64,000 bases of DNA from an uncultured Fibrobacter sp. (lineage in GTDB: Bacteria > Fibrobacterota > Fibrobacteria > Fibrobacterales > Fibrobacteraceae). Where the stretch lies: NCBI RefSeq assembly GCF_946062555.1, contig NZ_CAMGVQ010000003.1:31652-95651 (forward strand), written 5' to 3'. A program made the translations under genes and the position numbers. Under the pieces are notes generated by a model. That model made no database searches. It saw only the letters and a program-made list of their open reading frames with translations, and was not told where the DNA came from. Shown in pieces: positions 9,441 to 53,800 of the stretch (positions are counted from its first letter, which is position 1; each line of letters opens with the position of its first letter).

Positions 9441-10088
9441 ATGTTTAGATATTTGAAAAAAATAGTGAAGCGTTTTAGCATTTTGCTTGCGGCGATTCTC
9501 GCGAGTATGCTTCTCGTGTTCTCCGTGACGATGGCGAATTTGTTTTTGAGCGGTAAGGTGTTTCACGAAAAGAAGTACGCGAAGACAGAAGTGAGTGTCA
9601 AGAAGGTGGACGAGGTCGAGAAGAAGGTAGAAAAGAAAAAGCCGACTCGCAAGCCGAACCGTATGAAGTCCAATTCGCGTTCGCCCAAGGCAGGGCCTCG
9701 TTTTGCGATGAATCTCGGTGCTGCCTCGGGAACGGCTGGAGCCGCTATCAGTGATGAATTGGTTGCCGATTTTCGTGGCGGAGCGCTTTCAACGGAAAAG
9801 GGCGATGTCGACAAGAAACCGGAAAGCCGCAGTATGGCAAATTTCCAGGTGCCTCCCAAAATCAGGGATAACGAAATTGATGCGACGCTCCGACTCGGTT
9901 TTTGCGTGGACGCGGGTGGTCATGTGTATGACATCAAGGTGTTGGAAGAATCCCCGGCGGGTTCTGGCCTTGCCGCTGCTGGCCGCGAAGCCCTTTCTCG
10001 CATGACATTTACTCCGGCTGAAAAGGCGGGAAAAGCGGTGCCCTTCTGTGGTATGGAACAACCGTTCGAAGTGAAGTTTAGGGACTGA
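9441..10088 (+). CDS. tonB: TonB-family protein (N-terminal anchor, Lys/Pro-rich spacer, C-terminal TonB domain)
   Basis: TM anchor, then a KKVEKKKPTRKPNRMK spacer, then a C-terminal ~80 aa ending ...ALSRMTFTPAEKAGKAVPFCGMEQPFEVKF. It follows exbD. Confidence 0.7.
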   Translation: MFRYLKKIVKRFSILLAAILASMLLVFSVTMANLFLSGKVFHEKKYAKTEVSVKKVDEVEKKVEKKKPTRKPNRMKSNSRSPKAGPRFAMNLGAASGTAGAAISDELVADFRGGALSTEKGDVDKKPESRSMANFQVPPKIRDNEIDATLRLGFCVDAGGHVYDIKVLEESPAGSGLAAAGREALSRMTFTPAEKAGKAVPFCGMEQPFEVKFRD

Positions 10089-33514: not shown

Positions 33515-34819
33515 ATGAAACGCATCATCCTTGAAAAACTGAATAAGTGGAAAACATCTAAAAGGCGCAAGCCCCTGCTTTTGCGCGGCGCCCGTCAAGT
33601 GGGCAAGACTTGGGTGTTGAAGGAGTTTGGCAAATCTTTCCCGGACGGTTTTCTCCACATCGATTTTGACAAGCAAATCGAATACAGGCAGTTTTTCGAG
33701 CAGACCAAAGACGTAAAGCGCATCCTTGCGAACCTCGCAATGGCGAGCGGAAAAAAGATAACCGAGAACACTCTGATAATCTTTGACGAAATCCAGGCTT
33801 GCGAAAGCGCTTTAAACTCATTGAAGTATTTTTGCGAAGACGCTCCGCGATATAGCGTTGTCGGCGCCGGCTCCCTTTTAGGATTGAAGCTTGCATCCGG
33901 ATTCCCCGTGGGCAAGGTTGAATTTTTGGATATGTATCCCATGACATTCACCGAGTTCTTGCTTGCGAGTGGAGACAAGAACCTTGTTGAATACCTCGAC
34001 ACCATCGAAACACCGGAGAACATTCCGCAGGCATTCATGGGACCGCTAGAAGAAAAATTGAAAACGTACTTTGTGACAGGCGGCATGCCGGAATCTGTAC
34101 TTAACTGGGTCGAAGATCAAGACGTCGCCGCTGTCGACAAGGTTCTTTCTGATATTCTAACAGCTTACGAAGCGGATTTTGCAAAGCATGCGGACAAAAC
34201 CGACGTGCCGAAAATTCAATACATTTGGGATTCGCTACCGTCGCAACTTTCCCGCGAAAACAAGAAGTTCCTGTATTCGGCCGTAAAGCCCGGTGCGCGC
34301 GCCAGGGAATACGAGAACGCCCTGAATTGGCTCAACAACGCGAATCTCGTGAAGAAAGTTTTCCGTTCCACGAAACCGGGCCTCCCGATATCCGCCTACG
34401 ATGACTTGACATCTTTCAAAATATACATGGGCGACGTCGGGCTATTGCGAAAAAAAGCGGGGCTTGCGACTTCGGCATTTGCCGAACAGAACCGCCTATT
34501 TACGGAATTCAAGGGCGCTCTCACCGAAAATTTTGTATTGCAGAATTTGTCGGGGATGTTTGATGTCGCACCGCGCTACTGGAGCGACAACTTCCACGAA
34601 GTCGATTTCATTATCCAAAAAGAAAACACGATTATCCCCATTGAAGCCAAGGCGGGCACAAACATCAAAGCAGCCAGCATCAAGTATTACGACAAACAGT
34701 ACGACGCACCCCTGATGGTGCGATTCTCGATGCGCAACCTCTCCCGCGACGGAAAGATGCTGAACATCCCGCTCTTTATGGCAGATAGACTGGATGGACT
34801 GCTAGAAAAGTGGGGATAG
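33515..34819 (+). CDS. AAA+ ATPase with a DUF4143-type C-terminus, intact
   Basis: Walker A LLLRGARQVGKTW and Walker B TLIIFDEIQ. It is paralogous to 12777-13955 along its length. Confidence 0.75.
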   Translation: MKRIILEKLNKWKTSKRRKPLLLRGARQVGKTWVLKEFGKSFPDGFLHIDFDKQIEYRQFFEQTKDVKRILANLAMASGKKITENTLIIFDEIQACESALNSLKYFCEDAPRYSVVGAGSLLGLKLASGFPVGKVEFLDMYPMTFTEFLLASGDKNLVEYLDTIETPENIPQAFMGPLEEKLKTYFVTGGMPESVLNWVEDQDVAAVDKVLSDILTAYEADFAKHADKTDVPKIQYIWDSLPSQLSRENKKFLYSAVKPGARAREYENALNWLNNANLVKKVFRSTKPGLPISAYDDLTSFKIYMGDVGLLRKKAGLATSAFAEQNRLFTEFKGALTENFVLQNLSGMFDVAPRYWSDNFHEVDFIIQKENTIIPIEAKAGTNIKAASIKYYDKQYDAPLMVRFSMRNLSRDGKMLNIPLFMADRLDGLLEKWG

Positions 34820-35787: not shown

Positions 35788-36153
35788 TTAGATTTCGCCC
35801 TTTGCCTTCTGTTCCTTGAACTTGGCTTTTGCTTCAATCCATTCGTTTATAAGGCGATGGAGTTCCAATGTATCGACCGTTATTTCGTTGGGAGTCCCTT
35901 CAGGCGCGAAGTTGTCCACGATAAGTGTTTCCTTCGGGCCAATATCCCAGCAGCAATCGTTGCCGGAACATTCAACATGTTTCTTCTTTTTGGAGAGAAC
36001 CTGGTCGATTTGTTCAAGAATGATTGAGGGGAATTCTTCAACATCAGAGGCAAAAAAGGTTGTGAACACATTAGGGCCTTCGTCAAAAACGAAATTCAGC
36101 GTTTTTGTTCCGTCTTCGAGCGTCGTATAATCAATTTTGTAATTATAATTCAT
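35788..36153 (-). CDS. Putative immunity protein for the upstream EndoU toxin
   Basis: A 121-aa acidic protein. Its ATG overlaps the toxin stop by 1 nt (TGATG at 36153). Confidence 0.5.
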   Translation of the reverse strand: MNYNYKIDYTTLEDGTKTLNFVFDEGPNVFTTFFASDVEEFPSIILEQIDQVLSKKKKHVECSGNDCCWDIGPKETLIVDNFAPEGTPNEITVDTLELHRLINEWIEAKAKFKEQKAKGEI

Positions 36154-36803
36154 CAGTTTTCCTCCATCAAGGGATATACGTTAACAATTTTTCCGTTGGC
36201 ATTAACACGCATTCGTATACGGACTCCTTCAGAAGATGAACCTTCATACATATTGAGTGTGTTTGTTTTGAGCCGCTTGTTTGCGTACGCCTCGTTTATC
36301 GCATTCACGATATGTTGCGGCGACCAGTGTTCGGGGAAGAATGTAGACATTCCGCCCATTGTGCGCTTTCGGATGCCGTTGACCGTTACCCTGCCTTGAT
36401 ATACTCCTTTTTCATTCAGTTCTGATTTTGTACCGGGGATAATTCGACCTTCCGCATTCCTAATCACTTCGGTGTGGTAACCGGTCGCCTCGAGTCGTGT
36501 TTTCCCTTTACCTGCTGAAGCTGTCTTTACCTCACCATTAAATATATGTTTTATCAGGTTCGGTTCAAAGAGCTCCGTATGTTCCAAAGCTTCCAAATCA
36601 CCCTTGAGGTATTTTAGTGGAGGATTGTCCAGATTTTCTGTCCGGTAAAGTTCCGGACGATTCTGTTTCGCGGGTCCCTCTTCAGGAAAAAGCGTTGTTT
36701 GGATATACTTTTGCGGGAGTTCATTCAGCAAATGCTGATACTCCTTTGGTAATTCCGGTAGTTTGTAAACACCCCCCGGCTGGGTTGAGGCTTTAAGGCC
36801 CAT
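36153..36803 (-). CDS. Stand-alone bacterial EndoU-type RNase toxin domain protein
   Basis: An AAGGAG RBS precedes the start. Contains IKHIFNGEV...GKTRLEATGYHTE...GGMSTFFPEHWSPQHIVNAINEAY...GKIVNVYP, the EndoU_bacteria pattern. No N-terminal delivery domain is present. Confidence 0.6.
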   Translation of the reverse strand: MGLKASTQPGGVYKLPELPKEYQHLLNELPQKYIQTTLFPEEGPAKQNRPELYRTENLDNPPLKYLKGDLEALEHTELFEPNLIKHIFNGEVKTASAGKGKTRLEATGYHTEVIRNAEGRIIPGTKSELNEKGVYQGRVTVNGIRKRTMGGMSTFFPEHWSPQHIVNAINEAYANKRLKTNTLNMYEGSSSEGVRIRMRVNANGKIVNVYPLMEEN

Positions 36804-36994
36804 GATACTTCTCCTTGCCTTGCGGCGGAAAATGTGGATTATATTTTAAGGCAACAATCCATAACCTGCCGGGCAGTTTGCCCGGCAAACCTGATTAAAA
36901 ACACGATGTCATCTACTCTATGGTTTTATAAGAACCTCCATTGATTCATATCCATATTGTCGTAACTTCAGTATGCCCACGCTTTTTTATGAAT

Positions 36995-37175
36995 GAAAAA
37001 GGCGTGGTGTCGAATGCACTTACCTATCCTGAGGGCTACCACACCCTTTTACACAATAAGTACAAACGACCCACGCCCCGATAATGGTGCGTAAGATCCG
37101 ATGATTTCTTGTGTAAATTCCCTGAAGGTGGTAGTTTCAGGATAGGGAAACAAGAATCTTTTCAGTCTATGTCAA
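36995..37175 (-). ncRNA. Candidate structured RNA, copy A (between res and the EndoU toxin gene)
   Basis: Helices are cctatcctga/tcaggatagg (37023-32 / 37138-47), ctaccac/gtggtag (37036-42 / 37128-34) and ttacacaa/ttgtgtaa (37049-56 / 37109-16). ggcgtgg..tcg (37001-12) pairs with cgacccacgcc (37067-77). On the minus strand the last arm is followed by TTTTTCATT. Confidence 0.5.
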
Positions 37176-37238
37176 ATACAGTTATCTAAAGTGTTGAAAG
37201 TCTCCTTAAGTTATTTATCACACAAACATCAATAATTT

Positions 37239-40193
37239 CTACAGTCCTTCAACGATTGCTTGCAGGTTTTCCTGTTTGAGTTGCTTTTTGAAGCGAACCT
37301 TCACGCCTTCGTTTTCCAAATTTTCAAAGAACACTTTGGCAGATTCTATTTTGAGCTTCTCGCCACCGCGCAGATCTTTGTCGGCATTCTCAACATCCTT
37401 GCATTCTACAATGAGATTCAATTCGTTTTTGTCTTTACGACGAACGATATACATAAAGTCGGGACTGTAAGTTTCTCCCAAAATAGTCGGAATGCGCACG
37501 GTACTTTTCGGAATTTTTCCGAAGACTTCAACGCCTTCTACATCGTTCAGAATGTCGTCCTTCTCTAACGGAGAATCATAAGCGATACTATCGTAGAGAT
37601 ATTTTTTAGGAACTTCGCCCACATCCATAAATTTACCGACAAGTCCCAAGGTGATAAACTCTTCGGAACTGCCGTCAGTCTTGTTGAGGCTTGTTTTCTT
37701 GATGCGGGAGCGACTTACCTTTTGATATGTGAAACGACCCATCAGTTTTTCAAGTTTCCAACGATGGATTTCCGCACAAATATTTGCAAGGCTGCGTTCG
37801 TTGAACATTGGTTTTCCGCCATCTTGAACGAATTTGCATATTGCCTGGTGCATTGCTACAACGGGAACAGATTCTTTTTGCTGAATTCTCTGCAGGAATT
37901 TTCCGTAGTCAATTTTTCGTTCCACTTCATAACTGTTGCCACTAGAATCGTGCACTGTTGCAACGCCATTTTGCGTAGTAACTTTTTGACGAACGCTTTG
38001 CACAACCGTTTTTGCAAAAAGATCCTGCTTGATAAGGATTGGCAAGGCTTTCTCCAACTCGTCATTCAATTTGTCATCAAATGTGAGTAGGTAATGCTCG
38101 TTCATCTTAAGCCAAAGAGTCTTCAACTGGTTATAGCGATCGCTTCGAATTCTGATTTTATCGCCGCCTTTTTTCTTATTACGGTCAATAATTTTGCGAC
38201 CTGTATCACGGACCTTAAACAACTCGGGGTATTCGTCTGCAAATTCGTTGGTTTTTTCTGGATTTACAGGGTGTCCCGGCATATCCCCTTTGCGCATTTT
38301 GATGAACTTTTTCCCAAGGAGTTCCATAAGCCGGTCTTCCGCCTCGATTCCTATCTTTTGGGCGAATTCTTCAATTTGGGCGTCAGTGATGAACATCATT
38401 TCTTCGCGTTCGCCGTTGATTTCTGCGACAAGCTTGTCGGCAAATTCCTTTTCGGTATAGTCAACGATATAGTTAAGCGTGAATTCTTCATCGGTAATAC
38501 GTTTTCCAAATTCATTTACGGGGAGACGAAGTCCACGCCCCACTTCTTGCAACTTGCTGATTTCAGAACCGCTACTACGGAGTTTCGCTATCGTGAATAC
38601 ATTCGGATTATCCCAGCCCTCCTTGAGTGTCCACTTGGAAAAAATGAATCTTCTCAAGTTATCCATTGAAAGCAACTTTTTCTTGTCGTGTAGGATTTCT
38701 GAAATCTCTTGAGCAACGGATTCTTCGCTGCTTGAGTTGTCCTGCGCAAAGTAGCCGCCATGTGTTGCGGAAATATCGGCAAGAGATTTTTGCAGATATT
38801 CACGATATGGGTCTTTTTCTTTTAAACCTTCAATTTTTTTATTGATTTCTGCTTTCAAGATTTTTTCAAACGACCGACGCAAAGCGCCATTTTCATTTCG
38901 ATAGGCAGAAATGTCATCAATAAAGAAGAGTGCAAGTGTCTTTATCTTGTCTTCGCGATTGAAATTCTGTTCTTCGGTCTCCAAATGTCGACGAATTGCC
39001 ATCCGCATCATGGCTTCTTGGTAAGCTGTGGCGTACATATCGGGCGTAAGGGTACCGCCAACCTTTAATACCACGCCATTTGAAAGACGAATTTCTTTCT
39101 TGTCAAAATCTTCTATGACAAGGTTTCCGAAGTTTTCATGAATTTCGGAAAGAGGTATCCCAAGAGCCAATGTCTTTCGATGTGATTTGCCAAGGGCATC
39201 TTCCCATGTGAATCTTGTTTCGCAGTTATCCTTGTCTATTTTGGTAATTTCAGCAACCTTGACCTTGATGTTTTCGGCATCCTTTAGCGGATTGATATGT
39301 TCCTTTGCGATTCCCTTGATAAGATTCTTATTGAAGGATTCGTACGCATCCAGATTATAAACTAGATTCTTGTAATCCTTGACAACAGTCTTCTCTTTTC
39401 CTCTGCCGACTGTCGTTTCGGGGAATGTCGCCCCAAAACGAATCAACATTTGCGGACAAAGATTCATGATGGCGTCCATTGCCTTGTTCCCGTCAGAAAA
39501 ACGGTGCGGTTCATCGATAATGACAATGGGGCGAGTTGCCTTCAATGCTTCCAAAGGGCAATAAAAATTGTCTATGCCGTAATCAAAATCGTCATTTTTA
39601 TAATTGGAATTGGTGAGCAACGCACTATTGAGCAGCAGTACCGAAATATATCGTTCAGATTCTCCAGGATTTTGGTAAAAGCCTGAAACAGCAGAAGGGA
39701 AAAGTTTCTTTTTCTTGTTGCCTTTTTGCTCCGTTCCTTCAAACAGACGAATTTCTGCGCCATACCCACATGTGTCGCGAAAGTGCCTGCGCACATCGGG
39801 ATCTTCAATGAAGTTTTTTGCTCCAGCCTTGATTGCCTTTCCAGGAACAATCAGGATGAATTTTGAAACGCCCAACTGTTTGTGCAATTCGTGGATGGTT
39901 TCGGTATAGACGTATGTCTTACCAGTGCCGGTTTCCATCTTGACATCAATGTAAAGGCATGGTTTGGGAGCGACACCCACGGCTTTTTGCGCCGGGGTAA
40001 AACCTTTCATATTGAGTTGAAAGTCTTTTTGAATTTTGCCTAATTCCGCCTGAATTTTTGAGTCGTTTGGATAGATATCGCAGTTGGCGAAATGATTGAG
40101 CGAATGCTCTGCATGCAAAGTCCCAGTCAAAGCAAGAATTCTTTCAATTGCTTCGCGTTGATGCGGCAGGTTTTGTTCAAATTGAAATTCCAT
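37239..40193 (-). CDS. res: Type III restriction enzyme Res subunit (SF2 helicase plus C-terminal PD-ExK nuclease)
   Basis: Contains METGTGKTYVY (motif I), VIIDEPHRF (motif II) and the C-terminal YSPDFMY...LIVECKD. A GAGGTG RBS overlaps the mod stop. The start at 40193 (MEFQFEQ) is preferred over the ORF opening at 40238. Confidence 0.85.
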   Translation of the reverse strand: MEFQFEQNLPHQREAIERILALTGTLHAEHSLNHFANCDIYPNDSKIQAELGKIQKDFQLNMKGFTPAQKAVGVAPKPCLYIDVKMETGTGKTYVYTETIHELHKQLGVSKFILIVPGKAIKAGAKNFIEDPDVRRHFRDTCGYGAEIRLFEGTEQKGNKKKKLFPSAVSGFYQNPGESERYISVLLLNSALLTNSNYKNDDFDYGIDNFYCPLEALKATRPIVIIDEPHRFSDGNKAMDAIMNLCPQMLIRFGATFPETTVGRGKEKTVVKDYKNLVYNLDAYESFNKNLIKGIAKEHINPLKDAENIKVKVAEITKIDKDNCETRFTWEDALGKSHRKTLALGIPLSEIHENFGNLVIEDFDKKEIRLSNGVVLKVGGTLTPDMYATAYQEAMMRMAIRRHLETEEQNFNREDKIKTLALFFIDDISAYRNENGALRRSFEKILKAEINKKIEGLKEKDPYREYLQKSLADISATHGGYFAQDNSSSEESVAQEISEILHDKKKLLSMDNLRRFIFSKWTLKEGWDNPNVFTIAKLRSSGSEISKLQEVGRGLRLPVNEFGKRITDEEFTLNYIVDYTEKEFADKLVAEINGEREEMMFITDAQIEEFAQKIGIEAEDRLMELLGKKFIKMRKGDMPGHPVNPEKTNEFADEYPELFKVRDTGRKIIDRNKKKGGDKIRIRSDRYNQLKTLWLKMNEHYLLTFDDKLNDELEKALPILIKQDLFAKTVVQSVRQKVTTQNGVATVHDSSGNSYEVERKIDYGKFLQRIQQKESVPVVAMHQAICKFVQDGGKPMFNERSLANICAEIHRWKLEKLMGRFTYQKVSRSRIKKTSLNKTDGSSEEFITLGLVGKFMDVGEVPKKYLYDSIAYDSPLEKDDILNDVEGVEVFGKIPKSTVRIPTILGETYSPDFMYIVRRKDKNELNLIVECKDVENADKDLRGGEKLKIESAKVFFENLENEGVKVRFKKQLKQENLQAIVEGL

Positions 40194-40200
40194 AAACACC

Positions 40201-42225
40201 TCAGTAGCGGATTTCAAGATGAATGTCGATGCCGTCAACGTTCTTGATGTTGGCTTTTAGCGTATCAAGTGTCGTCATGCCGAAGCTGTAGCCAAAAAGA
40301 ACGATGTGCTTTGGCTTGAAATTTTTGTCTTCATCGTATTTTTTGAACAATTCCTTAATGTGTTTGCCTTCTATACCACTATCGATAAGGTACAGGTAAT
40401 CGTTAACCTTGTATGCGATGTAGCCGTTCAGATTGATTCTCTCAACATTTGCATTGAACTTGTGGCCATCATCCACCATCCATGTGGCAAGCACTGTTTC
40501 GGCGCCAAATTGTTTTAGAATCGTTGATTCACCTAAACTCGGATTTGGCACAAATTTTTTGATGGTGTCAAGCGATTTTTCAGCAGGTTTTTGAATAGTG
40601 TAATGTTTGAAACCGAAATCGCATGTGCTGTCGGGATGTTCTTCCTTGATTTTGGCGGCAGCACGACGGATGCGTTCCATGCCGATTTGGTCTAATGTGT
40701 GGGGCTTGTGGATGGAGTCACAAACGTCTATTGCATTTTGAATGATTTTTTTGCTTTTAGATGTAGATTTCCTTAGTTTTTCATCTAATGACTCTGGAAT
40801 TTGTACCGCAATATATTTTCTTTTCCCATTTTTCCTTTTTACTCCGTTGCCAAACAAAATGGAATGGGCTGTTGTTCCGCTTCCAGAAAAGAAGTCTAGA
40901 ATCACATCTCCATCTTGTGTTGCAAAATCAATAACTCGGTACAAAACATTTAATGGCTTGGGGTTGTCAAATACTTTTTTTCCATCAAACAAATCCGCTA
41001 CTAGCTTCGTTGAAGCACGATTGTCCTCGTATATAATTGATTTTAATGAATCCATAGCAGTTTCAATTCTTTTCTTCACATGAGGTTGCGTTGTATGATC
41101 TACGCCCCATTCAACTTGCCCATTTTCAGCATATTGCCAAAATGTCTCTGCCGGCCATCGCCAACCATTTTCGGGTATAGGGCAATTTCGATGAGTTGTT
41201 GGATGCGTAATATTGTACATATATCCCCCAGGATGAGGGTTAGAAGAATTTCCTGAACTACTATAAACACCAAATTCATCAACATTGTTATAATGTTTAA
41301 CTTGGTCTAATTTAAGCTTGGAGACGTTGTCTTTAATCCATTTTCTTAATTTTTCTTGGATAACGGCAATATCTTCTTCTCTTTCTTTAATTTTTTGATA
41401 TTGCTCGTTTATTAGTTCGGCAGCTTCACTTTTTCTAGACCATTTGCTTATAGATTCTCGATCTCTGCAATAACAGACCATGTATTCATGTTCTGTATCT
41501 ATTTGCGATGGATTGTTATCTGTTGCTGTTTCTATAATAAGCTGACCAATAAAATTTTCTTCTCCAAAAATTTCATCGCATAAAATCTTCAGATTCGCCT
41601 GTTCATTATCGTCAATGGAAATGAAGATGACTCCGTCATCCTTCAGCAAATCACGAGCCAGTTTCAAACGCGGATACATAAATGTGAGCCAGGCGGCATG
41701 GGAGCGTGAGCCACGCCTGCGCATGTTCATTATTTTTTCAACCTGAGCATCGTCATCTAAACCGAGTTTTTCCTTCAGGTCTTTTTCGGTAAAATCAAAA
41801 GAATCGTTATAGACAAAATCGTCCGAACCCGTATTGTACGGTGGGTCTATGTAGATACATTTGACTTCGCCTTCATAGGAACGGCGCAGGTGCTTGAGAA
41901 CTTCAAGATTGTCCCCTGAAAGATAAAGGTTTTCGCTGTTCTTGTTCTCTGATTTGGCGTTGTTCTCTTTGTCGGGAGTAATGACCGTTTCCGTGTCCAA
42001 CGCATAGAGCAGACGGGCGTAATCCTTGCCTAAGAAGTTGAAGGTCTCGCGCTCTTCCGTTACGAGTCGTGAATCTCCTGTGGCGCGCTCTGCCCAGTAA
42101 CGGATGGCATCGGCATCAATAGAGCCGTCTTTCGCGATGACTCCCGGTATCAGGGACTTCAGTTTTTTCAGAAGGTCCGCATTCGGGTTCACCTTCTCGT
42201 TCTTCTCAATAATGTCGCGCACCAT
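40201..42225 (-). CDS. mod: Type III DNA methyltransferase Mod subunit (N6-adenine/N4-cytosine family)
   Basis: Contains IYIDPPYNTGSDDFVYND (motif IV) and ILDFFSGSGTTAHS (motif I). An AAGGAG RBS lies 5 nt before the ATG at 42225. Confidence 0.85.
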   Translation of the reverse strand: MVRDIIEKNEKVNPNADLLKKLKSLIPGVIAKDGSIDADAIRYWAERATGDSRLVTEERETFNFLGKDYARLLYALDTETVITPDKENNAKSENKNSENLYLSGDNLEVLKHLRRSYEGEVKCIYIDPPYNTGSDDFVYNDSFDFTEKDLKEKLGLDDDAQVEKIMNMRRRGSRSHAAWLTFMYPRLKLARDLLKDDGVIFISIDDNEQANLKILCDEIFGEENFIGQLIIETATDNNPSQIDTEHEYMVCYCRDRESISKWSRKSEAAELINEQYQKIKEREEDIAVIQEKLRKWIKDNVSKLKLDQVKHYNNVDEFGVYSSSGNSSNPHPGGYMYNITHPTTHRNCPIPENGWRWPAETFWQYAENGQVEWGVDHTTQPHVKKRIETAMDSLKSIIYEDNRASTKLVADLFDGKKVFDNPKPLNVLYRVIDFATQDGDVILDFFSGSGTTAHSILFGNGVKRKNGKRKYIAVQIPESLDEKLRKSTSKSKKIIQNAIDVCDSIHKPHTLDQIGMERIRRAAAKIKEEHPDSTCDFGFKHYTIQKPAEKSLDTIKKFVPNPSLGESTILKQFGAETVLATWMVDDGHKFNANVERINLNGYIAYKVNDYLYLIDSGIEGKHIKELFKKYDEDKNFKPKHIVLFGYSFGMTTLDTLKANIKNVDGIDIHLEIRY

Positions 42226-42283
42226 AACGGCTCCTTGAATAAACATTCACGAATCCGCTCTATTCCGTGCCACGATTTCCACA

Positions 42284-42497
42284 AATAAAAAAGGCGTGGA
42301 GTCGTTAGCACTTACCTGTTCTGCGGGTCACCACAACCCTTCGCGTGATAAGCAAAAACGACCCACGCCCCATACAGGACGTGAGCGTTCGCCTTATCCT
42401 CACGCTATTTTGAAGTGGTGAATTTCAGAACAGAGAATAAGAGACGAATCTCAAAAATTCCGGTCGCTCCGCACCATTCAGTACGGGGCTATGTCAA
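42284..42497 (-). ncRNA. Candidate structured RNA, copy B (upstream of mod)
   Basis: Same architecture as copy A with different helix sequences: ctgttctg/cagaacag (42316-23 / 42426-33), tcaccac/gtggtga (42328-34 / 42415-21) and gcgtga..ataag/cttat..tcacgc (42343-52 / 42393-405). ggcgtggagtcg (42293-304) pairs with cgacccacgcc (42359-69). A U-run follows on the minus strand. Confidence 0.5.
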
Positions 42498-42569
42498 TAT
42501 CAAAATAGCATAAATTTGCGACAAATATATCCGCATCCGCTTTTTTTTGAAAAATTTCGCGTTTTTCCC

Positions 42570-42682: not shown

Positions 42683-43435
42683 GTGTGGACCCGCAGCGTG
42701 GCGAAGAACCTGAGCGGCAGCAAGGCGTCGCGCACGGCAATTTTCGACTTGCATTGCAAGGATGATTTGGGGAACCTCATCGAGATAGAGGTGCAGATTC
42801 GCGAGATGAAGAATTTCGTGAAACGCCTAGCGTTTTACGCTAGCGAGATGGTGGTGAACCAGGCCGAGCCCGGGGACGATTGGAGTTTTGATGTCCAGCC
42901 AACCTACGTAATCGCTCTGACGCGTTTCTCTGTTTTTCCCGATGAACGCGCTGTCCATCGTGCAACGGTAATCGACATGGAAAGCGGAGAACAGCTTGTG
43001 GATACCTATAACTTTACTGCTATTGAACTTTCGAAGGTTCCCTTTTTCATCGAAAAGACTTCCAGCGATTTGAGCAAGTGGCTGTTCTTCTTCCGCTACT
43101 TGAACCGGCTCAAGGAACTCCCCGAAGAACTGGACGATGGAAAGTTCAGGGACTTGACAGAAAGCGCAAAAGTATCTAACTTCAACAAGAAAGAATTCGA
43201 GGCATATCGGAATATGTACCACAAGGTATGGGACCATAACGCCCTGAGGGACGGCTTCTTCAAGGAATTCGCGGATGACGTCAACGCGAAGATTGAAGAA
43301 CGTATTTCTGGTAGAAATCGCGAGTTTGCGAAGAAAATGATAGTACTCGGCAAACTTTCCAATGAGGAAATTGCCGCTGCTACGGATCTTTCCCTGGAAG
43401 ACGTCGTCGTGCTTCGCAGTCAGCTTGAAGCATAA
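42683..43435 (+). CDS. Rpn-family/PDDEXK_2 nuclease (putative transposase-like), N-terminus probably disrupted
   Basis: Contains IFDLHCKDDLGNLIEIEVQ (D...ExQ/K core), ...PTYVIALTRF..., IELSKVPFF and a C-terminal LSNEEIAAATDLSLEDV. The first ~40 aa expected for the family are missing. A short out-of-frame ORF (MKANDPSK...) with an RBS lies just upstream. Confidence 0.5.
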   Translation: MWTRSVAKNLSGSKASRTAIFDLHCKDDLGNLIEIEVQIREMKNFVKRLAFYASEMVVNQAEPGDDWSFDVQPTYVIALTRFSVFPDERAVHRATVIDMESGEQLVDTYNFTAIELSKVPFFIEKTSSDLSKWLFFFRYLNRLKELPEELDDGKFRDLTESAKVSNFNKKEFEAYRNMYHKVWDHNALRDGFFKEFADDVNAKIEERISGRNREFAKKMIVLGKLSNEEIAAATDLSLEDVVVLRSQLEA

Positions 43436-43836: not shown

Positions 43837-44112
43837 ATGTACAATGTTTTAATGTCAAGAAGCGTCTCTAGGGCTGTTTCAACGATGCCAATAGCGCAAC
43901 AAGAAAAACTTGCTTTGCTTGTCGATGATATTAGGCTGAATGGACCCGTTAGGACAAACTGGCCGAATTACGGAATTCTGGCAGGAACATCAACTCATCA
44001 TTGTCACCTTTCCCACAAATGGGTGGCATGTTGGATTGAAACAGAAAAAGGTATAACAGTTGAGGTAACATATGCTGGCAGTCGTGGAAGCGCCCCCTAT
44101 GCAGAACACTGA
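43837..44112 (+). CDS. RelE/ParE-superfamily toxin
   Basis: 91 aa. Contains ...WPNYGILAGTSTHHCHLSHKWVACWIETEKGITVEVTYAGSRGSAPY. Its end overlaps the downstream HTH gene. Confidence 0.55.
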   Translation: MYNVLMSRSVSRAVSTMPIAQQEKLALLVDDIRLNGPVRTNWPNYGILAGTSTHHCHLSHKWVACWIETEKGITVEVTYAGSRGSAPYAEH

Positions 44113-44479
44113 TGAACCCGTGTCGTTCAGAGTTTCGGGCAAGAACATTCCGAAGCCCGTCATCGCCTTTTTGGATGCTCTTTTCCCTGATTCCGTCCGT
44201 ATCGATGAAGACGATGATGCGCTTGAGCCGGTGGAAGAATTGGGTTGGTACAAAAAAGCGAAGAAGAGGATGAACCCCGCAAAAGCGTTGAAAATAATGC
44301 GGGTAAATGCGGGGCTTACCCAGGCGCAATTGGCCAAAAAGGTTGGTCTCGCAAAACAGAATTACAATTCGCTTGAACGTGGCGCCAGACCCATTTCTAT
44401 GCTCATGTCAAAGAAATTAGCCGATGCCCTCGGGACATCTTATTTGATGTTTTTCCGCGAAAATAAAAGCAAGTTATAG
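44072..44479 (+). CDS. XRE-family HTH antitoxin
   Basis: The C-terminal helix-turn-helix is MRVNAGLTQAQLAKKVGLAKQNYNSLERGARPIS. The start could be 44072 or the ATG at 44099. Confidence 0.6.
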   Translation: MLAVVEAPPMQNTDEPVSFRVSGKNIPKPVIAFLDALFPDSVRIDEDDDALEPVEELGWYKKAKKRMNPAKALKIMRVNAGLTQAQLAKKVGLAKQNYNSLERGARPISMLMSKKLADALGTSYLMFFRENKSKL

Positions 44480-45586: not shown

Positions 45587-46108
45587 ATGAACAGCGATAC
45601 CCTTTCACTTGTTGACGTGGTGACGGATTACGCTTTTGCGCTGGATACGCTGGACGATTACGACCACCAGCGGCTTGTGCTGCGCAAGTCTGCCAATGCG
45701 GAAAAGTTTTACGCGACTTACGAGAACGCGATGGCGGCAATTCAGGGGCTCAGGGAGAAGTTCGGCGGCAGCGAGTTGTTTGCCCACGAGAAGGACGATT
45801 CGTTCAAGAGCAGCATCGGACAGATTTACCAGACCTTCGGCGGGGTGGAACTTTATCCGAGCGTGGAACAAAAAGCGGCGATGCTCCTCTATCTCGTCAC
45901 GAAGAACCATTCGTTCAGCGACGGCAACAAGCGCATTGCGGCGACGCTCTTCTTGTGGTTTTTGCTGAATAACGGCATTTTGTACAGGGCCGACGGTTCC
46001 AAGCGCATCGCCGATGCCACACTTGTGTCCATGACGCTGATGATTGCCGAGAGCCGCCCCGAGGATATGGAAATGATGGTGAAAATCGTGGTAAACTTGA
46101 TGGGGTAA
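45587..46108 (+). CDS. Fic/Doc-family protein
   Basis: The core motif is NHSFSDGNKRIAATLFLWFL (HxFxDGNKR, the Doc-type variant). The N-terminus has YAFALDTLDDYDHQRL. Confidence 0.7.
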   Translation: MNSDTLSLVDVVTDYAFALDTLDDYDHQRLVLRKSANAEKFYATYENAMAAIQGLREKFGGSELFAHEKDDSFKSSIGQIYQTFGGVELYPSVEQKAAMLLYLVTKNHSFSDGNKRIAATLFLWFLLNNGILYRADGSKRIADATLVSMTLMIAESRPEDMEMMVKIVVNLMG

Positions 46109-47072: not shown

Positions 47073-50000
47073 ATGCTACACTTGAAATTTGCCCTGAATC
47101 TGGAACATCTCGCCGACGAGATGATAGAAGCCATCTCAAAAGAATGGAAAGACCCGTTCAACGCCCCGGTCGTGATATTCCCAGACCCGAAACTGGAACA
47201 GTGGTTCCGCCTCCGTTGGATGAAGAAGAAGGGTGTGCTCGCCAACCTGAACAAGAGCACCATCGACAGGTTCTTGTTCGATATTCTGGTGGGAGAAGGT
47301 GTCGTCACGGATAAGAAAGGCAATACAACTCGCCTCTGCAAACTCTCGGCGGATATCCTGATGAACGTGATTCTCGCCTACCTGACGAGCGAAACGGACG
47401 GTATTCCGAACTACAGGCGCATCGACGACGAAGTGACCCGCTACCTCACGAATGCGAACGACCCGGAGGGAGGACTTGACGAAAACCACCTGTTCGATTT
47501 TGCCCTGAAGATGGCATCCCTCTTCCTGGAATACGAGACGAGCCGCCCGAGCGGTTTCGCAAAAAATGCAAATGGCGATGTAGATGGCATTCTCGACCAC
47601 TGGAAAGCAGGAAAACTGCAGCCGTTCTTTTCGAATTTCAACGGCAGGCTCGCGGGGCGCGAGGCATGGCAGCAAAAGCTGTATTCGGCCATTTTCCACA
47701 AGCAGGGCGACAATGAATCGCTGTTGACCCGTGCTTTCAAGGAAATGTCCCAGAAAATGCACGAAAATCGGAATTACCTCACCATCCCGTACCTCTTCGA
47801 GGCTCTTGAAAACGGTAAATTCAACGAAGAAAAACTTCCGCACGGTAGCAACGGCAAGGCACTTCCCGTCTTTATCTTCGGGCTTTCGGGCATGGGGCAG
47901 TTCTACCGCGTCATATTGCAGAAATATGCCAGCGAGCACGACGTGTACGCGTTCATCCAGAATCCGTGTATGGAATTCTGGGAAGACGCGTTTACCGCCC
48001 CCGAGAAGATTTGCAGGAATTGGGAAGTTTCCAAGACCGGTGAATGGAAATCGGGTACCGGCGATGCCGCGCACATCAGGGACAAGATGAAAATCATGGA
48101 AACGGGGAATCCTGAATCCGGCGACCCGACGACGGACATTGAGGATATCTCCGAATACGCTGGCAACGGCACGCAACCTGCAGCGCAACCGGCAGAAAAC
48201 GACCTGCTCGTAAACTGGGGCCGTTCCGGACGCGACAATATAAAACTCTGGTGTCAGGCGACCAACTACGATTTCGACTTCAACGGCATTTTCGACAGGG
48301 AGGGGCACGAAATCGAATTGCCGCAAGACTCCCTCCTGCACAAGATTCAGTACGCCGTCGCACATCGCGAAAACAACATGGACGGTCTCAAATCCTGCGT
48401 AGGCGACGGTTCCCTCGACGTGACCGCGGCGCCGACCCGAATCCGCGAGATCGAGAACCTGCACACCCAAGTCTGCAAGTTGCTCAGGAAGGGCGCACGC
48501 GTCGAGGATATCCTGGTGGTATCGCCCTGCCTCGACGATTACCGCACGGCAATCAACATGGTGTTCGACCAGAGCGAAAAGATGCGCATCCCGTTCTCGA
48601 TAGTCGATTCGCCCGCAAGGAGTTCCCTGACCGAAAATGCACTCGCGAGCCTGTTTACCGTTCTCGACCAGAAGGGGATTTCCAGACCCGACTTCTTTGC
48701 GCTGGTCCGCAATCCCGTTGTGCAGGCGGTCCGCAAGATTACCAACGAGGAGGTGGACGCCTGGCAGAACTGGGTATCCGAAACGAATACGTTCCGCCCC
48801 CGCGACAAGCAGGATGACTGGGACAAGGTCAAGAACCGCCTGCTGATGGCCCAGATGACGACATACGACGTCAAGTTCGACGGCGATACACTACGGCCCT
48901 TCTCCGATATGGCCTGTTCCGATAAGGCGTCGCTCTGCAAGTTTATCGACTGCATCGAAACACTTGAGAATTGGGTGGAATTCGGCAAGAACAAGTGTTG
49001 CGACCTGGACCTGCTCGCAGAGCATCTCGACAAGTGGATTGCCCTGCCGTACGTTCCCGATGTACTCAAGAGTGAATCCATCGTCTACAGGCGCGTCGCC
49101 GATGCGATTGCACTTCTCGGCTGGCAGAATGCGGCCGGCCAGAAGGATATCTCGATGAAAATCGTGGAACAGGCCCTCCTTACCGCCGCACAGGGAACCG
49201 AATACAGTTGCGGGAACATTTTCGTGAACGGGATTACCTTCATGAAGTTCGCCCCGAACCGCACGCTCCCCGTAAAACACCTGTTCTTTATCGGCGCCGA
49301 CGCGATGTCGTTCCCGGGGGCAAAACAGCACAATACGCTCGACCTGCGCAAGTCCTGCAGGCCCTGGCCCGGTGACGATTCGCCCGTACTCAAGAACCGC
49401 TATGCGTTCCTGTGCCAGCTCATGAGCACGGGGGAAGGTTTCCACCTGAGCTACGTGAACAAGGATATCAAGAAGGATGCGGAACTGTACCCATCGTCGG
49501 TGGTAAACGACCTGCGGAAATTCATCGCCGTGGAATGGAAGGAAAACGAGATTAAGCTCGACGAGACGCGCGATGTAACTGAACTGTTCACGCCCAAGAG
49601 CCTGCGCAACAAGGAAGCGTACGAATGGATGCGCCTCTCCGACGAGGAACACCAGGAGAAAATCAGGAAGCGCCGCAGGGAAAGGCTCGGAAAGCTGGAC
49701 AGAAACAAGCTGAAGGAATACCTGGTGCGTATTCCGGAAAGGGTCGGCTTCTACACGCTCGCAAGCTTCCTGAAAGATCCGTTCCAGTTCCGCATTTCAC
49801 TGATGCTGATTGACGAAGATGACGAGAATGTCGAGAAGGAACTTTTTGAACCCGTCTATTTTGACCATCTGGATACAAGCATCGTGCTGAAGAAGGCGCT
49901 GGCCGCCGAACTTTCGGGAGAATCGGAAGAACTCGAAAACTTCAAGAAAGACCTCAAACTGAAGGGAAAGACGCCTAACGGCGAATTCGGGGTAATCCAG

Positions 50001-50828
50001 TGGCAAACTATCGACGCCAAGAAAAAACTGATTCTCACCCAGATGGGTGGCACTCCCGAGGCACCCGGCCTCGTGCAGGACATTCAGGCAAACTGGTCGT
50101 ACGGCCAAAAAATCCAGGATTTGCAATTTGCACGTACCGACGGATCCCGGTGGCTCCTTTCCGGCAAGCTGGACTGGAGCAACGCAAAGAAAATCGAAGA
50201 CGTGACGGAAATAATCGAGGTCAGCTCGACTAGCAGCAAGAACGAAAAAATTTCCTTCGACAAGTACATGGCCCCCTATATCAAGGCGCTTGCCGTCATT
50301 GCGTACAAGGGCTCCGCCAAGCCCGAACTTGAAAATACACCGCAGACAATCGGCGTTTCCATCTATTCCTGCGACAAGGAGATGAGCGGCCCCGCAAAGA
50401 CGAGCGTAATTATGACTCCCGCAGACGCCCGCAAGAAAATCGAGACCATATACGCCACCGCGTTCGGTGACGAGGCGACAAAATCCATGCCGTTCAGCAA
50501 GGCAGTCCCTGCCGACCTCATCGGCGAACTCAAGGAAAAGAACATCTTCAGCTATGCCGAAAAGCTTCTGCGCGATTCATGGGCATTTTTCGACAAGAAG
50601 AGCCTTTTCAACCCCTTGACCGATGTCGGATTCTCTCCCGATAATTTCGCAAGCGAATGGGACGAGGCGACCGATAAAATGAACAGGCTCATCGCCATCA
50701 AGAAGTACGCAAAGCCTAAAGAGCAGAACAGCGCGGCGACAACAAAGAAGGCTGAAACAGGCAAGGCGGCTACGACTAAAACTGCCGCTAAAAAGACTAC
50801 GGTAAAGAAAGGCAAGGCAAAGGAGTAG
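47073..50828 (+). CDS. recC: RecBCD subunit RecC, with a Lys/Ala/Thr-rich C-terminal tail
   Basis: 1251 aa. The N-terminus has ...PVVIFPDPKLEQWFRLRWMKKKGVLANL... It is followed directly by recB and recD. Confidence 0.75.
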   Translation: MLHLKFALNLEHLADEMIEAISKEWKDPFNAPVVIFPDPKLEQWFRLRWMKKKGVLANLNKSTIDRFLFDILVGEGVVTDKKGNTTRLCKLSADILMNVILAYLTSETDGIPNYRRIDDEVTRYLTNANDPEGGLDENHLFDFALKMASLFLEYETSRPSGFAKNANGDVDGILDHWKAGKLQPFFSNFNGRLAGREAWQQKLYSAIFHKQGDNESLLTRAFKEMSQKMHENRNYLTIPYLFEALENGKFNEEKLPHGSNGKALPVFIFGLSGMGQFYRVILQKYASEHDVYAFIQNPCMEFWEDAFTAPEKICRNWEVSKTGEWKSGTGDAAHIRDKMKIMETGNPESGDPTTDIEDISEYAGNGTQPAAQPAENDLLVNWGRSGRDNIKLWCQATNYDFDFNGIFDREGHEIELPQDSLLHKIQYAVAHRENNMDGLKSCVGDGSLDVTAAPTRIREIENLHTQVCKLLRKGARVEDILVVSPCLDDYRTAINMVFDQSEKMRIPFSIVDSPARSSLTENALASLFTVLDQKGISRPDFFALVRNPVVQAVRKITNEEVDAWQNWVSETNTFRPRDKQDDWDKVKNRLLMAQMTTYDVKFDGDTLRPFSDMACSDKASLCKFIDCIETLENWVEFGKNKCCDLDLLAEHLDKWIALPYVPDVLKSESIVYRRVADAIALLGWQNAAGQKDISMKIVEQALLTAAQGTEYSCGNIFVNGITFMKFAPNRTLPVKHLFFIGADAMSFPGAKQHNTLDLRKSCRPWPGDDSPVLKNRYAFLCQLMSTGEGFHLSYVNKDIKKDAELYPSSVVNDLRKFIAVEWKENEIKLDETRDVTELFTPKSLRNKEAYEWMRLSDEEHQEKIRKRRRERLGKLDRNKLKEYLVRIPERVGFYTLASFLKDPFQFRISLMLIDEDDENVEKELFEPVYFDHLDTSIVLKKALAAELSGESEELENFKKDLKLKGKTPNGEFGVIQWQTIDAKKKLILTQMGGTPEAPGLVQDIQANWSYGQKIQDLQFARTDGSRWLLSGKLDWSNAKKIEDVTEIIEVSSTSSKNEKISFDKYMAPYIKALAVIAYKGSAKPELENTPQTIGVSIYSCDKEMSGPAKTSVIMTPADARKKIETIYATAFGDEATKSMPFSKAVPADLIGELKEKNIFSYAEKLLRDSWAFFDKKSLFNPLTDVGFSPDNFASEWDEATDKMNRLIAIKKYAKPKEQNSAATTKKAETGKAATTKTAAKKTTVKKGKAKE

Positions 50829-50836
50829 AGTTGAGT

Positions 50837-53800
50837 ATGTCCGAAGAAATCAATGAATTCAAGATAAACAAGTTCACTCCTTCTAAGAGCATCTACATCG
50901 AGGCTTCCGCAGGCACCGGCAAGACCTATACTATCCAGCTGATAGTCGCGCGTATGGTTGCCGAGGGCACTCCGCTCAAGAAAATCCTGATCGTGACCTA
51001 CACCGAAAAGGCGGCAGGCGAACTGAAGGACCGTATCCGCAAGAAAATCGACGAGGTCCTGCAAAAGGGCAGAATCGACAAGAGCGAGCCCGAACTTTCG
51101 CCCGAACAGATGGCAAATTTCCGCAAGGCCTACCAGGACGTGGACAATGCGGCGATATTTACCATCCATTCCTTCTGCCAGAAGGCGCTCAAGGAGTACG
51201 CCTACGATGCGGGCAGACCGTTCGACATGGCGATGGTCGACGATTCCGCCGTCGAGGACATGGTAGACCAGTACATTCGCGACAAGTGGAGCAAGGATGA
51301 CGAATTCATCGCCCTGCTGAGAGAAGCCGAAAGCACTTCTACCCTTATCGAGAACCTGAAAAGCTATTTCATCAAGGCTGTCGACATGTACAAGGGAGTC
51401 GATGCAAACGGCAAGGAAATCGTCACGATTGACGAAGTTGAAATGCCCAAGCTAGGCGAAAAAGCGCTGTCGCTGGAAGAACTGGAAAAAATCGCGCAGG
51501 CGAAGAATTTCGAAGAACTCGTGTCTACCCTTCATCTGGAAGGCCATCTTGAAATTTTTGAAGATAACACGGACAAATTCTTCACAAAGAAAAACACGGG
51601 GCCGATTCCTGAATTTCTTAGCAGTCTAAAGAAATGGAAAAAGGGTTCTCCGTTATACGACGGTTCGTTCAAAGATGGAAAATGCCCGCAAGAAGACTGG
51701 CCCAAGGACATGTATGCGTCTTTTTGCTACCTAAAGGAACTCAAGGGATTCCTTTCCGACATCGACAAGAAGGTTGAAAAGGTCAAGCTCCACAAGTTCC
51801 TTATTGCCCATACGCCACAACTTTTCGACGCATGGCAGGCATACAAGGCCGAAAACAAGTTGCAGTCGTTCAACGACATGATTCTTTCGGTCCACAAGGC
51901 TGTCATGGAGCCCGGCAGTGCGCTCAAGGAACGCCTCAGCGCGCAGTACACCTACGCCATCATCGACGAATTCCAGGACACGAACCAGCTGCAGTGGGAT
52001 ATCTTCAGCAATGTGTTCAAGAACTTCGTAGTGGGCGACCCCAAGCAGTCCATCTACAGCTTCCAGGGCGCCGACGTGAACGTGTACAAGAAGGCGACAG
52101 GCGAAATCGGCAAGAAAATTGACCTCGTGCACAACTTCCGCTCCACGGACGGGATTATCAACGGCTGCAACGCGCTATTTTCCGGCAATTATTTCGCACC
52201 CGCAGAAGGGATGCCCGAACTCGTGAAGTTTACGGATTCATACCCGCCCGACGGCGAAAATGCGGACCAGAAAAAGAAGGCACCCGAAATCGACGGCAAC
52301 GAAGTCCGCTCCATCTGGCTCAGCGAGAAGGACGTCTCGGCAGACAGTTTCGCCGCAACGGCAGTCGCGCATATTATCGACTGGTGTTCCTTCCGCGAAG
52401 ACGGCAAGACGACGCGACTTCAGGTGTTCGACAAGGATTACGGCAAGCCCGGTCACGATTCGGTACTCAAGAACGTGACGTTCAAGGATTTCGCCATTCT
52501 CGCTAAATCCCGCAGCGAGATGGAGAACATCGAAAGCATCATGCGGAGCGTGGGCGTGCCCTACACGCAATACAAGGAAACGAACCTATTCCGCAGCAGG
52601 GAATGCGCCGAATGGATTTCGCTCTTCCGCGCGATAAACGCCCCCGATTTTTCTTCATGGAACAGGCAGCTGCTCAGCGAAGTGCTCATTACCGACTTCT
52701 TCAAGGATGTCGTCGCCGAAAGGGAACGCGCCACCCGCGGCTCGGAACAGTCCAGCGGTCTCGAGGAACTGCACTACGCCGAGAGCAAGGAATTTGACGA
52801 CCCGAACAACCCGGAACGCCTGCAGATTGCCTCCTGGAAGACCCTCGCGCTGAAACGACGCTACGCCGAGATGCTGGAACGCATCTACGACGACACGCAA
52901 ATAGAATACCGCTTGATGGATGTTTCCCGGTTGCAGAGCATGGCCCGCCTGCGCCAAATCGGTAACTACGCCATCGACTACCTGTACAATCACAGGTGCT
53001 CGCTCGACGACCTTATCCGCCATCTGCAGGGGCTCGCCCGCTATGAAGAATCTGCCGACGACGAGAACGGCGACCTGGTCGAAAAGGGCAGCGACTTCAA
53101 CGCCGTGCAGGTAATGACCATCCACGCGTCCAAGGGCCTCGAATTTCCGGTAGTCATTTCGGTCGCGGGCTTCAAGCAGTTGCCTAATTCCAAGCCGCCC
53201 TACATCACTCACGGCAAAGACGAGTCACTGCATCTTGGCTTTGGCGACACGGCGAAGGAATGCCGCCAGCGCGAAGAGATGGAAGAATGGAAACGCCTGT
53301 TCTACGTGGACTTCACGCGCGCATCTTCGCTGTTGCTTATCCCGCGTTACGACGTGTGGTACAACAAGCCCAATAAAAATGAACCCGCAACAAAAAGTGG
53401 CTACTTCAAGCATGTCCACTTCCTGATGGACGCCCTTGAGAACTTTGCCGAAAAAAGCACAAACCTGTACGACCGCTTGCTAAAAAGCGATCAGTGGGTC
53501 ACCGCACAGGAAGGCATCGCCGAGAAGGCGAACCTCGTCAAGGACATTCTCGCCAGGACAAACGTGGCAAACAGCAATACGGTCGACCTCGACAAGGCCA
53601 TCACGGAACAGAAGGTGGAAATCGCTTCTCTGCAGGGGAAGGTCGCAAGCGCAAGCATAATGCAGTATTCATACTCCTCGCTTTCCGGCCGAGCCGAGAC
53701 GCCCATTGCCGAAGCCGACGACAGCCGTACCGAAAAGGAAGGCGAATCTACGGCAGAAGAAATCCCCGTACCGGGTATGGAAAACTACCCGCGCGGGACA

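Follow-up and report, generated by a model that had tools for sequence, protein, structure and literature searches.

A structured element occurs twice in the 64-kb window (the whole stretch of uncultured Fibrobacter DNA analysed here). The element is a new RNA family, previously undescribed and so far found only in the genus Fibrobacter, and we consider it likely that it is transcribed as a cis-acting 5′ leader which works as a terminator/antiterminator attenuator of transcription. Our search of the literature returned no description of such a leader. The initial annotation of the window had already reported two diverged copies of a candidate novel RNA, but it missed that the element is a 5′ leader which precedes restriction-modification (R-M) genes across the genus.

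Both copies were found again at the places reported, by sequence reading, by a conserved 16-mer (GGGGCGTGGGTCGTTT) and by a covariance model. All positions are window coordinates, and the copies are read on the minus strand, 5′ to 3′. The 16-mer is present at 37064-37079 and 42356-42371 and nowhere else in the window, each time on the minus strand. When the 64 kb were searched with filters off, the covariance model detected only copies A and B (176 and 132 bits), the next match having 15 bits. The two copies share 62% sequence identity. Their model-based alignment has 23 identical base pairs, 4 pairs with a one-sided change and 8 with double-sided compensatory changes, the latter being the number that had been claimed as a minimum. 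Compared to shuffled sequences, minus-strand folding gives z = -4.5 and -5.7 for the two copies, while plus-strand folding is weaker (z = -3.3 and -4.0).

Structure and covariation of the element

From 5′ to 3′, the element consists of a TAnnnT hexamer, a GACATAG-type motif, a 5′ hairpin (H0), segment 1, a rod of about 120 nt, segment 4 and a U-run. Segment 1 is pyrimidine-rich (consensus CUCUUAUUCUC). The rod has three basal helices (H1-H3) and an apical helix, in which segment 2 (GAGRAUAAGGCGAAC.CUCACGUCC) pairs with the near-invariant segment 3 (GGGCGUGGGUCGUUUGUGCUUAU). Segment 4 (consensus AGGUAAGUGC..CGACNCCACGCC, then 5-7 U) resembles segment 2 and can pair with segment 3 as well, which results in a terminator helix. 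The consensus structure is an unbranched rod with 0 branch points; the element carries conserved A-rich bulges (GAAAU, CAAA). The following features were assigned.

42287-42507, minus strand: copy B, full leader form
42502-42507, minus strand: copy B, putative -10-like hexamer TATTTT with TGC before it (extended -10-like)
42489-42495, minus strand: copy B, conserved motif GACATAG, where transcription is predicted to start and the conserved unit begins
42466-42489, minus strand: copy B, 5′ hairpin H0, the hairpin at +7 in full copies
42433-42444, minus strand: copy B, segment 1 (UCUCUUAUUCUC), candidate anti-antiterminator strand, complementary to GAGRAUAAG of segment 2
42315-42434, minus strand: copy B, rod hairpin (H1-H3 and apical helix), proposed antiterminator, from covariation and the minimum-free-energy fold
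42347-42371, minus strand: copy B, segment 3 (GGGGCGUGGGUCGUUUUUGCUUAUC), the strand common to rod and terminator and the most conserved block
42287-42316, minus strand: copy B, segment 4 tail (AGGUAAGUGC..CGACUCCACGCC) and U-run, 3′ half of the terminator, from covariation, the U-run as read from the sequence
36996-37173, minus strand: copy A, diverged, A-type form
37167-37173, minus strand: copy A, GACATAG with a poor -10 upstream, 66 nt past the res stop codon
37023-37146, minus strand: copy A, rod hairpin with H1-H3 intact and a weak apical part, from folding and pair counts
36996-37079, minus strand: copy A, terminator (GGGGCGUGGGUCG..ACUUAU paired with GGUAAGUGCA..CGACACCACGCC, then UUUUU), from the minimum-free-energy fold

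Copy B is the intact leader of the mod-res genes. Copy A starts 66 nt past the res stop codon and has neither H0 nor a -10 box of good quality. With its weak apical rod, it represents a 5′-truncated form biased towards the terminator, a fact that had not been recognized. Several parts of the initial description could be retained: helices 1-3 are as given there, and the U-runs and the conserved AGGTAAGTG linker are present in the copies. The limits were correct as to the location of the copies, but the unit begins further upstream, at the GACATAG motifs. The two copies had also been said to align end to end, which is not the case as a 5′ hairpin module of about 35 nt and the good -10 box exist only in copy B.

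Further copies were found in other Fibrobacter genomes and in metagenomes; the cultured strains Fibrobacter sp. UWR3, UWB13 and UWT2 are among the carriers of the leader. An exact-pattern scan over one genome per species resulted in three loci, all from Fibrobacter metagenome-assembled genomes. A pattern scan of metagenomes gave five matches, of which two are true copies; the other three (L004, L006, L007) were rejected as chance matches, the fold being absent in all of them. Additional Fibrobacter loci were fetched via downstream proteins and then searched with the covariance model. Altogether, 358 kb of Fibrobacter DNA were searched for copies, and there are one or two per locus, always before a gene. 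The alignment comprises 14 distinct copies, and two more variants were found beyond these upstream of a PEGA gene. The window DNA itself recurs solely in metagenome assemblies of the same organism.

That the element matches no known RNA family was borne out by Rfam 15, which has nothing at the gathering threshold over the whole window; by E-value, the best match to copy B is mir-2188 with 15 bits and E = 2.2, which is noise. A tRNA/tmRNA scan returned none, a core-pattern scan of viral contigs gave 0 matches, and copy B has no BLASTN match among plasmids and phages.

Both helices are conserved and covary. Pair counts were taken from the 14-copy alignment, which was fitted to the covariance model, and were compared to a control where the partner is slid by 1-3 columns and to 500 shuffles. 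The rod has 45 pairs, and 93.6% of the 621 cells are paired as compared to 36-42% when slid. Double-sided changes occur in 26 of these pairs (124 cells), and none of the 500 shuffles reaches the rod values. The terminator has 21 pairs between segments 3 and 4, with 96.6% paired compared to 32-54% when slid; changes on both sides were seen in 6 of the pairs. Among the changes in the terminator are U-A to C-G and G-C to U-A (L017), C-G to U-A (L039), A-U to G-C (L027) and U-A to A-U (L013d). In L017, segments 2, 3 and 4 have changed in concert. The substitutions in the 14 distinct homologues thus keep the helices instead of breaking them, as is to be expected for the structured RNA that had been proposed.

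The basal helices H1-H3 are free to vary in sequence while pairing is kept, and the mean pairwise identity of their arms is 43-47%. It is 87% for segment 3 and 81% for segment 4, which is the pattern expected for a strand that must satisfy two alternative partners. Both helices make use of segment 3 and the tail follows H1 after only 0-2 nt, so that formation of the full rod excludes that of the terminator and vice versa. This affects the fourth pairing of the initial annotation, which exists but cannot coexist with helices 1-3 and is an alternative fold. The terminator helix covers both this fourth pairing and the AGGTAAGTG linker; it had been overlooked that the two together are an intrinsic terminator which competes with the apical half of the hairpin. 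A pseudoknot with all four helices was considered and rejected, as the topology forbids it: the tail is separated from H1 by 0-2 nt but would have to bridge a stack of about 30 bp.

The functional strand is the minus strand. G-U pairs outnumber A-C mismatches by 71 to 8 in the rod and by 48 to 0 in the terminator (119 to 8 in sum), and thus the minus strand is the one under selection. Transcription from this strand, already proposed in the initial annotation, is in accordance with this asymmetry and with the conserved -10-like box, the 5′ hairpin and the U-run. The TAnnnT hexamer is present in 12 of 12 full-length copies, about 3-8 nt upstream of the motif (G/T)A(C/T)ATAG, and the motif itself was found in every copy. 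H0 begins at transcript position +7 in each of the 12 full-length copies, with a different sequence in every one of them, and is absent from A-type copies. Homology between loci begins at GACATAG or about 17 nt upstream.

As Fibrobacter intergenic regions carry short palindromic repeats, such as one of about 55 nt in L001, L002 and L008, the element might be an inert palindromic repeat without function, similar to repetitive extragenic palindromes (REP) or miniature inverted-repeat transposable elements (MITE). We consider this very improbable. An inert repeat would account neither for the 124 cells with double-sided changes and the preservation of two alternative helices nor for the strand asymmetry. 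There are few copies (2 in the 64 kb of the window, 1-2 per locus over 358 kb) and these are strongly diverged, while recent transposition would leave near-identical copies. An identity of 62% between A and B and the lack of matches in the plasmid, phage and viral collections are not what is seen for MITE or REP. In addition, each of the few copies has the orientation of its downstream gene, and transposon-type terminal inverted repeats are lacking, which speaks against the MITE alternative that had been left standing initially.

Predicted attenuation

Eight full leaders were folded (copy B, L005, the near-identical L001 and L002 copies, L023, L013u, L027 and L017); the resulting fold preferences are thermodynamic predictions. 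In all eight, the rod is the minimum-free-energy fold with -59 to -69 kcal/mol, the terminator-constrained state of the same leaders having -50 to -59 kcal/mol. The terminator is the minimum-free-energy fold in both A-type copies, window copy A and its orthologue L013d. For copy A, it has -56 to -62 kcal/mol, varying with the stretch that is folded. When prefixes of copy B are folded, a hairpin between segments 1 and 2 is predicted first, before segment 3 is made, then the rod once its 3′ arm is made, and the rod is still predicted after addition of the tail. For copy A, addition of the tail shifts the prediction to the terminator.

We propose that transcription of a full leader, about 210 nt in length, would start at GACAUAG from the -10-like box. 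H0 and then the rod would follow, and segment 1 may sequester segment 2. If segment 4 takes segment 3 from segment 2, an intrinsic terminator would result, and the winning fold would decide if the polymerase reads through into the gene, which starts about 40-100 nt further on. As the rod is predicted to be the stable fold in copy B and other full leaders, these would be read through by default, and would terminate only if some factor or condition blocked the 5′ arm. In copy A, the terminator would be favoured; the mod-res transcript would stop there, with little transcription continuing into the EndoU operon.

Several features of the element are those of an attenuator. It lies a short distance before the gene on the same strand, within the 5′ untranslated region. 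An intrinsic terminator with a U-run is present (a 21-pair helix followed by U5-7, with a loop of about 29 nt), and there is an alternative helix that uses one of the terminator strands, namely segment 3. If a protein or an RNA binds the leader, the A-rich bulges (GAAAU, CAAA) and segment 1 would be candidate sites. It was also considered that the variable arms might be guides to the downstream mRNA, but this was rejected as the longest complementarities are at the shuffled expectation.

A number of observations weigh against an attenuator. Where transcription starts and ends, and whether it reads through, is predicted from the sequence. The terminator loop of about 29 nt is unusually long, and a simple terminator scan did not call the terminator helix, flagging only the apical hairpin of copy B. 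The pairing of segments 1 and 2 (88% paired) is nearly invariant in sequence and shows no real covariation. As the alignment was fitted to the covariance model, the pair counts favour the rod. A sensor was not identified, and the structure is a rod and not a junction-type aptamer. By sequence reading, there is no conserved leader peptide; a short open reading frame (ORF, MVRSDRNF) is confined to B-like copies, and a leader peptide as general sensor was therefore rejected. Most loci were retrieved through R-M proteins, so that the gene association is partly biased, and the leader also occurs on a PEGA surface-protein operon and is thus not R-M-specific. Finally, some distant homologues of an ~805-aa (amino acid) protein, described below, are encoded within operons that do not have the leader.

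The element may also be a stand-alone small RNA gene of about 180-210 nt with its own terminator, which acts in trans and has the downstream genes as mere neighbours. In favour of this, the element comes with a -10-like box of its own, a stabilising hairpin at the 5′ end and a terminator that has a U-run. The A-type copies, which are predicted to fold as terminator, are located 190-410 nt from the next gene, and the leader is better conserved than the adjacent coding sequence. However, in all eight full leaders folded, the predicted stable fold hides the 5′ half of the terminator. The full copies are all positioned about 40-100 nt before a start codon on the same strand, with no other promoter-like box seen between. 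The conserved blocks are those which take part in two alternative helices and do not represent an exposed seed, and complementarity of the variable arms to downstream sequence is at chance level. We thus regard an independent small RNA as unlikely, but it would be compatible with a cis-acting leader, since a terminated leader could also act in trans.

Downstream genes and cassette exchange

Position, orientation and gene association of the element are consistent with a leader function. All full-length copies have a start codon on the same strand about 40-100 nt downstream. In the window, the genes following the two copies are:

40201-42246, minus strand: Type III R-M mod gene (Pfam N6_N4_Mtase, T3RM_EcoP15I_C), start codon about 40 nt past the copy B U-run
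37239-40238, minus strand: Type III R-M res gene (Pfam ResIII, RE_endonuc), gene caller start equivalent to 40010
36153-36803, minus strand: EndoU-domain gene (Pfam EndoU_bacteria), about 190 nt downstream of copy A
35788-36153, minus strand: ORF of 121 aa abutting the EndoU gene, with only a sub-threshold match to DUF5033

From its position, the 121-aa ORF is a possible immunity partner of the EndoU gene.

A Type III mod gene follows the leader in four Fibrobacter lineages (window, L035, L037, L039), and the Mod proteins of the three other lineages are 63-76% identical. A Type I hsdM-hsdS pair, met incidentally in a flank, is located downstream of the copy at L037 2433-2590. At least five variants precede a methyltransferase-fusion gene coding for ~805 aa, and a PEGA / Fib_succ_major operon follows in two different neighbourhoods. 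Copies which were found without the R-M retrieval bias span three R-M types as well as the PEGA and EndoU contexts.

The ~805-aa protein (Fibrobacter, L013 10001-12418; homologues P0001-P0120) belongs to a family with 5179 matches at E <= 1e-10, but there is no sequence match in Pfam, NCBIfam or PDB. It has the motifs D-X8-E-A-K (PD-ExK-like), VWDMCCGVGNLE (motif I) and LINPPY, and its structural model resembles CamA, LlaBIII, DrdV, BrxX/PglX and BpuSI, with a mean pLDDT of 60 and an unreliable N-terminal region of 275 residues. From the motifs and this low-confidence model, it is probably an unannotated family of N6-adenine methyltransferases or R-M enzymes of the Type IIG/IIL lineage. The PD-ExK-like motif suggests that it may also be a nuclease.

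Additional structures were observed between leader and gene. After the terminator of L002 (about 4185-4217), L003, L023, L027 and L037 (upstream of hsdM), there is a second conserved hairpin, AUAAGGGCU..(Shine-Dalgarno)..GCCCUUAUG. It is common to Type IIG-like and Type I leaders, has the ribosome-binding site within it and extends as far as the start codon. This hairpin may represent a layer of translational control. A perfect 9-bp hairpin (UGCCGGGCA-AAC-UGCCCGGCA) is located between copy A and the EndoU start codon (36867-36887, minus strand). It is kept in Fibrobacter sp. UWR3 (L013 about 12950-12975) with a compensatory C-G to U-A change and is embedded in a longer conserved non-coding block (CATAGRGTA.ATGACATCGTGTTTTTAATCA..). 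In an AT-rich genome, a rod was seen by eye (L016 about 9780-9960: GCCUCACAA../..UUGUGAGGC; CUCACAC/GUGUGGG) before a 67%-identical homologue of the ~805-aa protein, with a CACACC tail and then a U-rich run after it. Its architecture resembles that of the leader, but it was missed by both covariance models and was not counted as a copy.

A comparison to Fibrobacter sp. UWR3 is informative for the evolution of the element. At its syntenic locus, orthologues of B and A flank an ~805-aa gene instead of mod-res. Synteny is evident from the HTH_31 and 91-aa gene pair upstream and from DUF4417 and AAA_14/DUF4143 genes downstream. On the upstream side, the window and UWR3 are about 90% identical through segment 1, after which the arms fall to 54%. 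On the downstream side, homology restarts exactly at TTTGACATAG of the A-type copy. The H2 type CUACCAC/GUGGUAG is common to window copy A, L013u and L037u, and the type UGGU./.ACCA to L002, L001, L023, L027, L039 and L013d. From this shuffling of helix types and the comparison to UWR3, it follows that the leaders recombine with one another and that a cassette flanked by two of them has been swapped. For such an exchange, ordinary homologous recombination at the conserved blocks would suffice. According to gene and domain calls at the loci examined, no recombinase is consistently found near the leader.

Between types, the leader arms are essentially unrelated, yet they are fully compensated. 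Within a type, the leaders of L001, L002, L003 and L008 are 99.4-99.5% identical, compared to only 85-91% for the ~810-aa gene next to them, and their flanks are unrelated. The four loci are homologous from GACATAG (or about 17 nt upstream) to the stop codon of the gene. This may indicate either very strong selection on the whole RNA or homogenisation or horizontal spread. The palindromic repeat of about 55 nt (GTCATTCTGGAGCC..GATAGAATCC) occurs between terminator and ribosome-binding site in L001 (about 4345-4400), L002 (about 4125-4180) and L008. Of these four leaders, which are near-identical apart from the insertion, only that of L003 does not have it. Upstream of the L003 and L008 leaders, there are related GTCATCCCCGCGAAGGCGGGGATCTCC repeats. 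Both types of repeat look like a REP/MITE-like family of Fibrobacter.

Two copies flanking mod-res in the window and an ~805-aa gene at the syntenic UWR3 locus might suggest that the element acts as DNA, either as a folded single-strand recombination site or cassette boundary similar to attC, or as a homology block for the swapping of defence cassettes. The mosaic copies with their shared H2 types do indicate recombination between copies, and structure is kept while sequence varies, as in attC sites. We nevertheless consider it improbable that this is the function of the element. A recombinase is not consistently nearby, most loci have a single copy and do not form an array, and homology breakpoints are not at one fixed position. 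By eye, GTTRRRY/RYYYAAC cores were not seen in the window copies, for which no pattern search was run. The fixed orientation, the promoter box, the 5′ hairpin, the U-run and the covarying terminator would be left unexplained. Furthermore, exchange of cassettes by homologous recombination through the leader is compatible with a transcribed attenuator.

The neighbourhood of the leader in the window is a defence and toxin island (33515-34819, 43837-44479, 45587-46108, 47073-54625). It contains a PADLOC PDC-S01 (AAA_14/DUF4143) gene, a Fic-domain gene, and the pair coding for a 91-aa and a 135-aa HTH_31 protein, which looks toxin-antitoxin-like. A RecC/UvrD-helicase (RecB-like) gene pair is found at the island border. 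A link between the leader and a gene of the PD-(D/E)XK (Rpn/Transposase_31-like) family, which is the divergent neighbour in the window (42683-43435) and in L005 (2470-3525), was considered. It was dropped because the proteins are paralogues with 28% identity, the intervening DNA is unrelated and other copies do not have such a neighbour, so that this is probably a coincidence. The genomes are rich in this family. Between about 24000 and 28000, the window has a G+C content of 33-40%, compared to about 50% elsewhere, which suggests that this segment has been acquired separately.

Comparison with known systems

The pyr leader of Bacillus subtilis with PyrR and its trp leader with TRAP are factor-dependent attenuators with terminator, antiterminator and anti-antiterminator. 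The Fibrobacter leader is similar in being promoter-proximal, in sharing one strand, segment 3, between two exclusive helices, in having a terminator with a U-run before the gene, and in an upstream segment, segment 1, that may sequester the 5′ strand of the antiterminator. It differs in that there is no sequence or Rfam relationship to these leaders and no binding protein or repeat motif was identified. Its antiterminator is an unbranched rod of about 45 bp with hypervariable, covarying arms, and the terminator loop has about 29 nt. Also, it does not precede a biosynthetic operon but R-M, toxin and surface genes.

With the platforms of transcriptional riboswitches, the leader shares alternative folds, conserved unpaired A-rich bulges and a conservation that is high compared to coding sequence. 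Unlike in riboswitches, an aptamer with a multi-helix junction or a pseudoknot is not evident, and the leader matches none of the known classes. It is pure speculation that S-adenosylmethionine is the ligand; this would be logical for methyltransferase operons, but the PEGA operon does not fit.

The attC sites of integrons are also imperfect hairpins with conserved structure, and as with these, two copies of the leader can flank an exchangeable cassette. However, the Fibrobacter element is larger (about 160-210 nt compared to 57-141 nt), has a predicted promoter and terminator, and is located upstream of the gene instead of downstream. The R′/R″ cores were not seen by eye, arrays do not occur, and there is at most one extra copy per locus. 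Gene and domain calls did not reveal an integron-type integrase at any leader locus. The swap of a cassette between two copies also bears on the reshuffling of defence islands.

R-M expression must be tightly balanced since excess restriction kills the host. C proteins, antisense RNAs and autoregulation by methyltransferases are known to control R-M systems, and act at promoters or by antisense pairing. To our knowledge, the control devices of R-M systems are proteins or antisense RNAs that are each tied to one system. The Fibrobacter leader resembles them in being placed before R-M operons, for which the amount and the timing of expression are critical. We offer it as a tentative idea that one portable leader puts Type I, Type IIG/IIL-like and Type III R-M, toxin and surface operons under a single signal throughout the genus, with the arm types, which would stay identical within a type despite a gene divergence of 10-15%, as tags for identity or insulation and the conserved blocks as adaptor for cassette exchange. 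If such a signal exists, phage infection, cofactor supply and growth state would be candidates. The leader would represent a new bacterial RNA family with two alternative folds that are experimentally tractable. Fibrobacter is an important cellulose degrader of the rumen and is genetically hard to manipulate, in part due to its R-M systems; promoter, leader and covariance model provide a concrete handle on rumen Fibrobacter. In contrast to the known control devices, a single leader family is common to Type I, Type IIG/IIL-like and Type III operons, and this would represent a new layer of defence-gene regulation.

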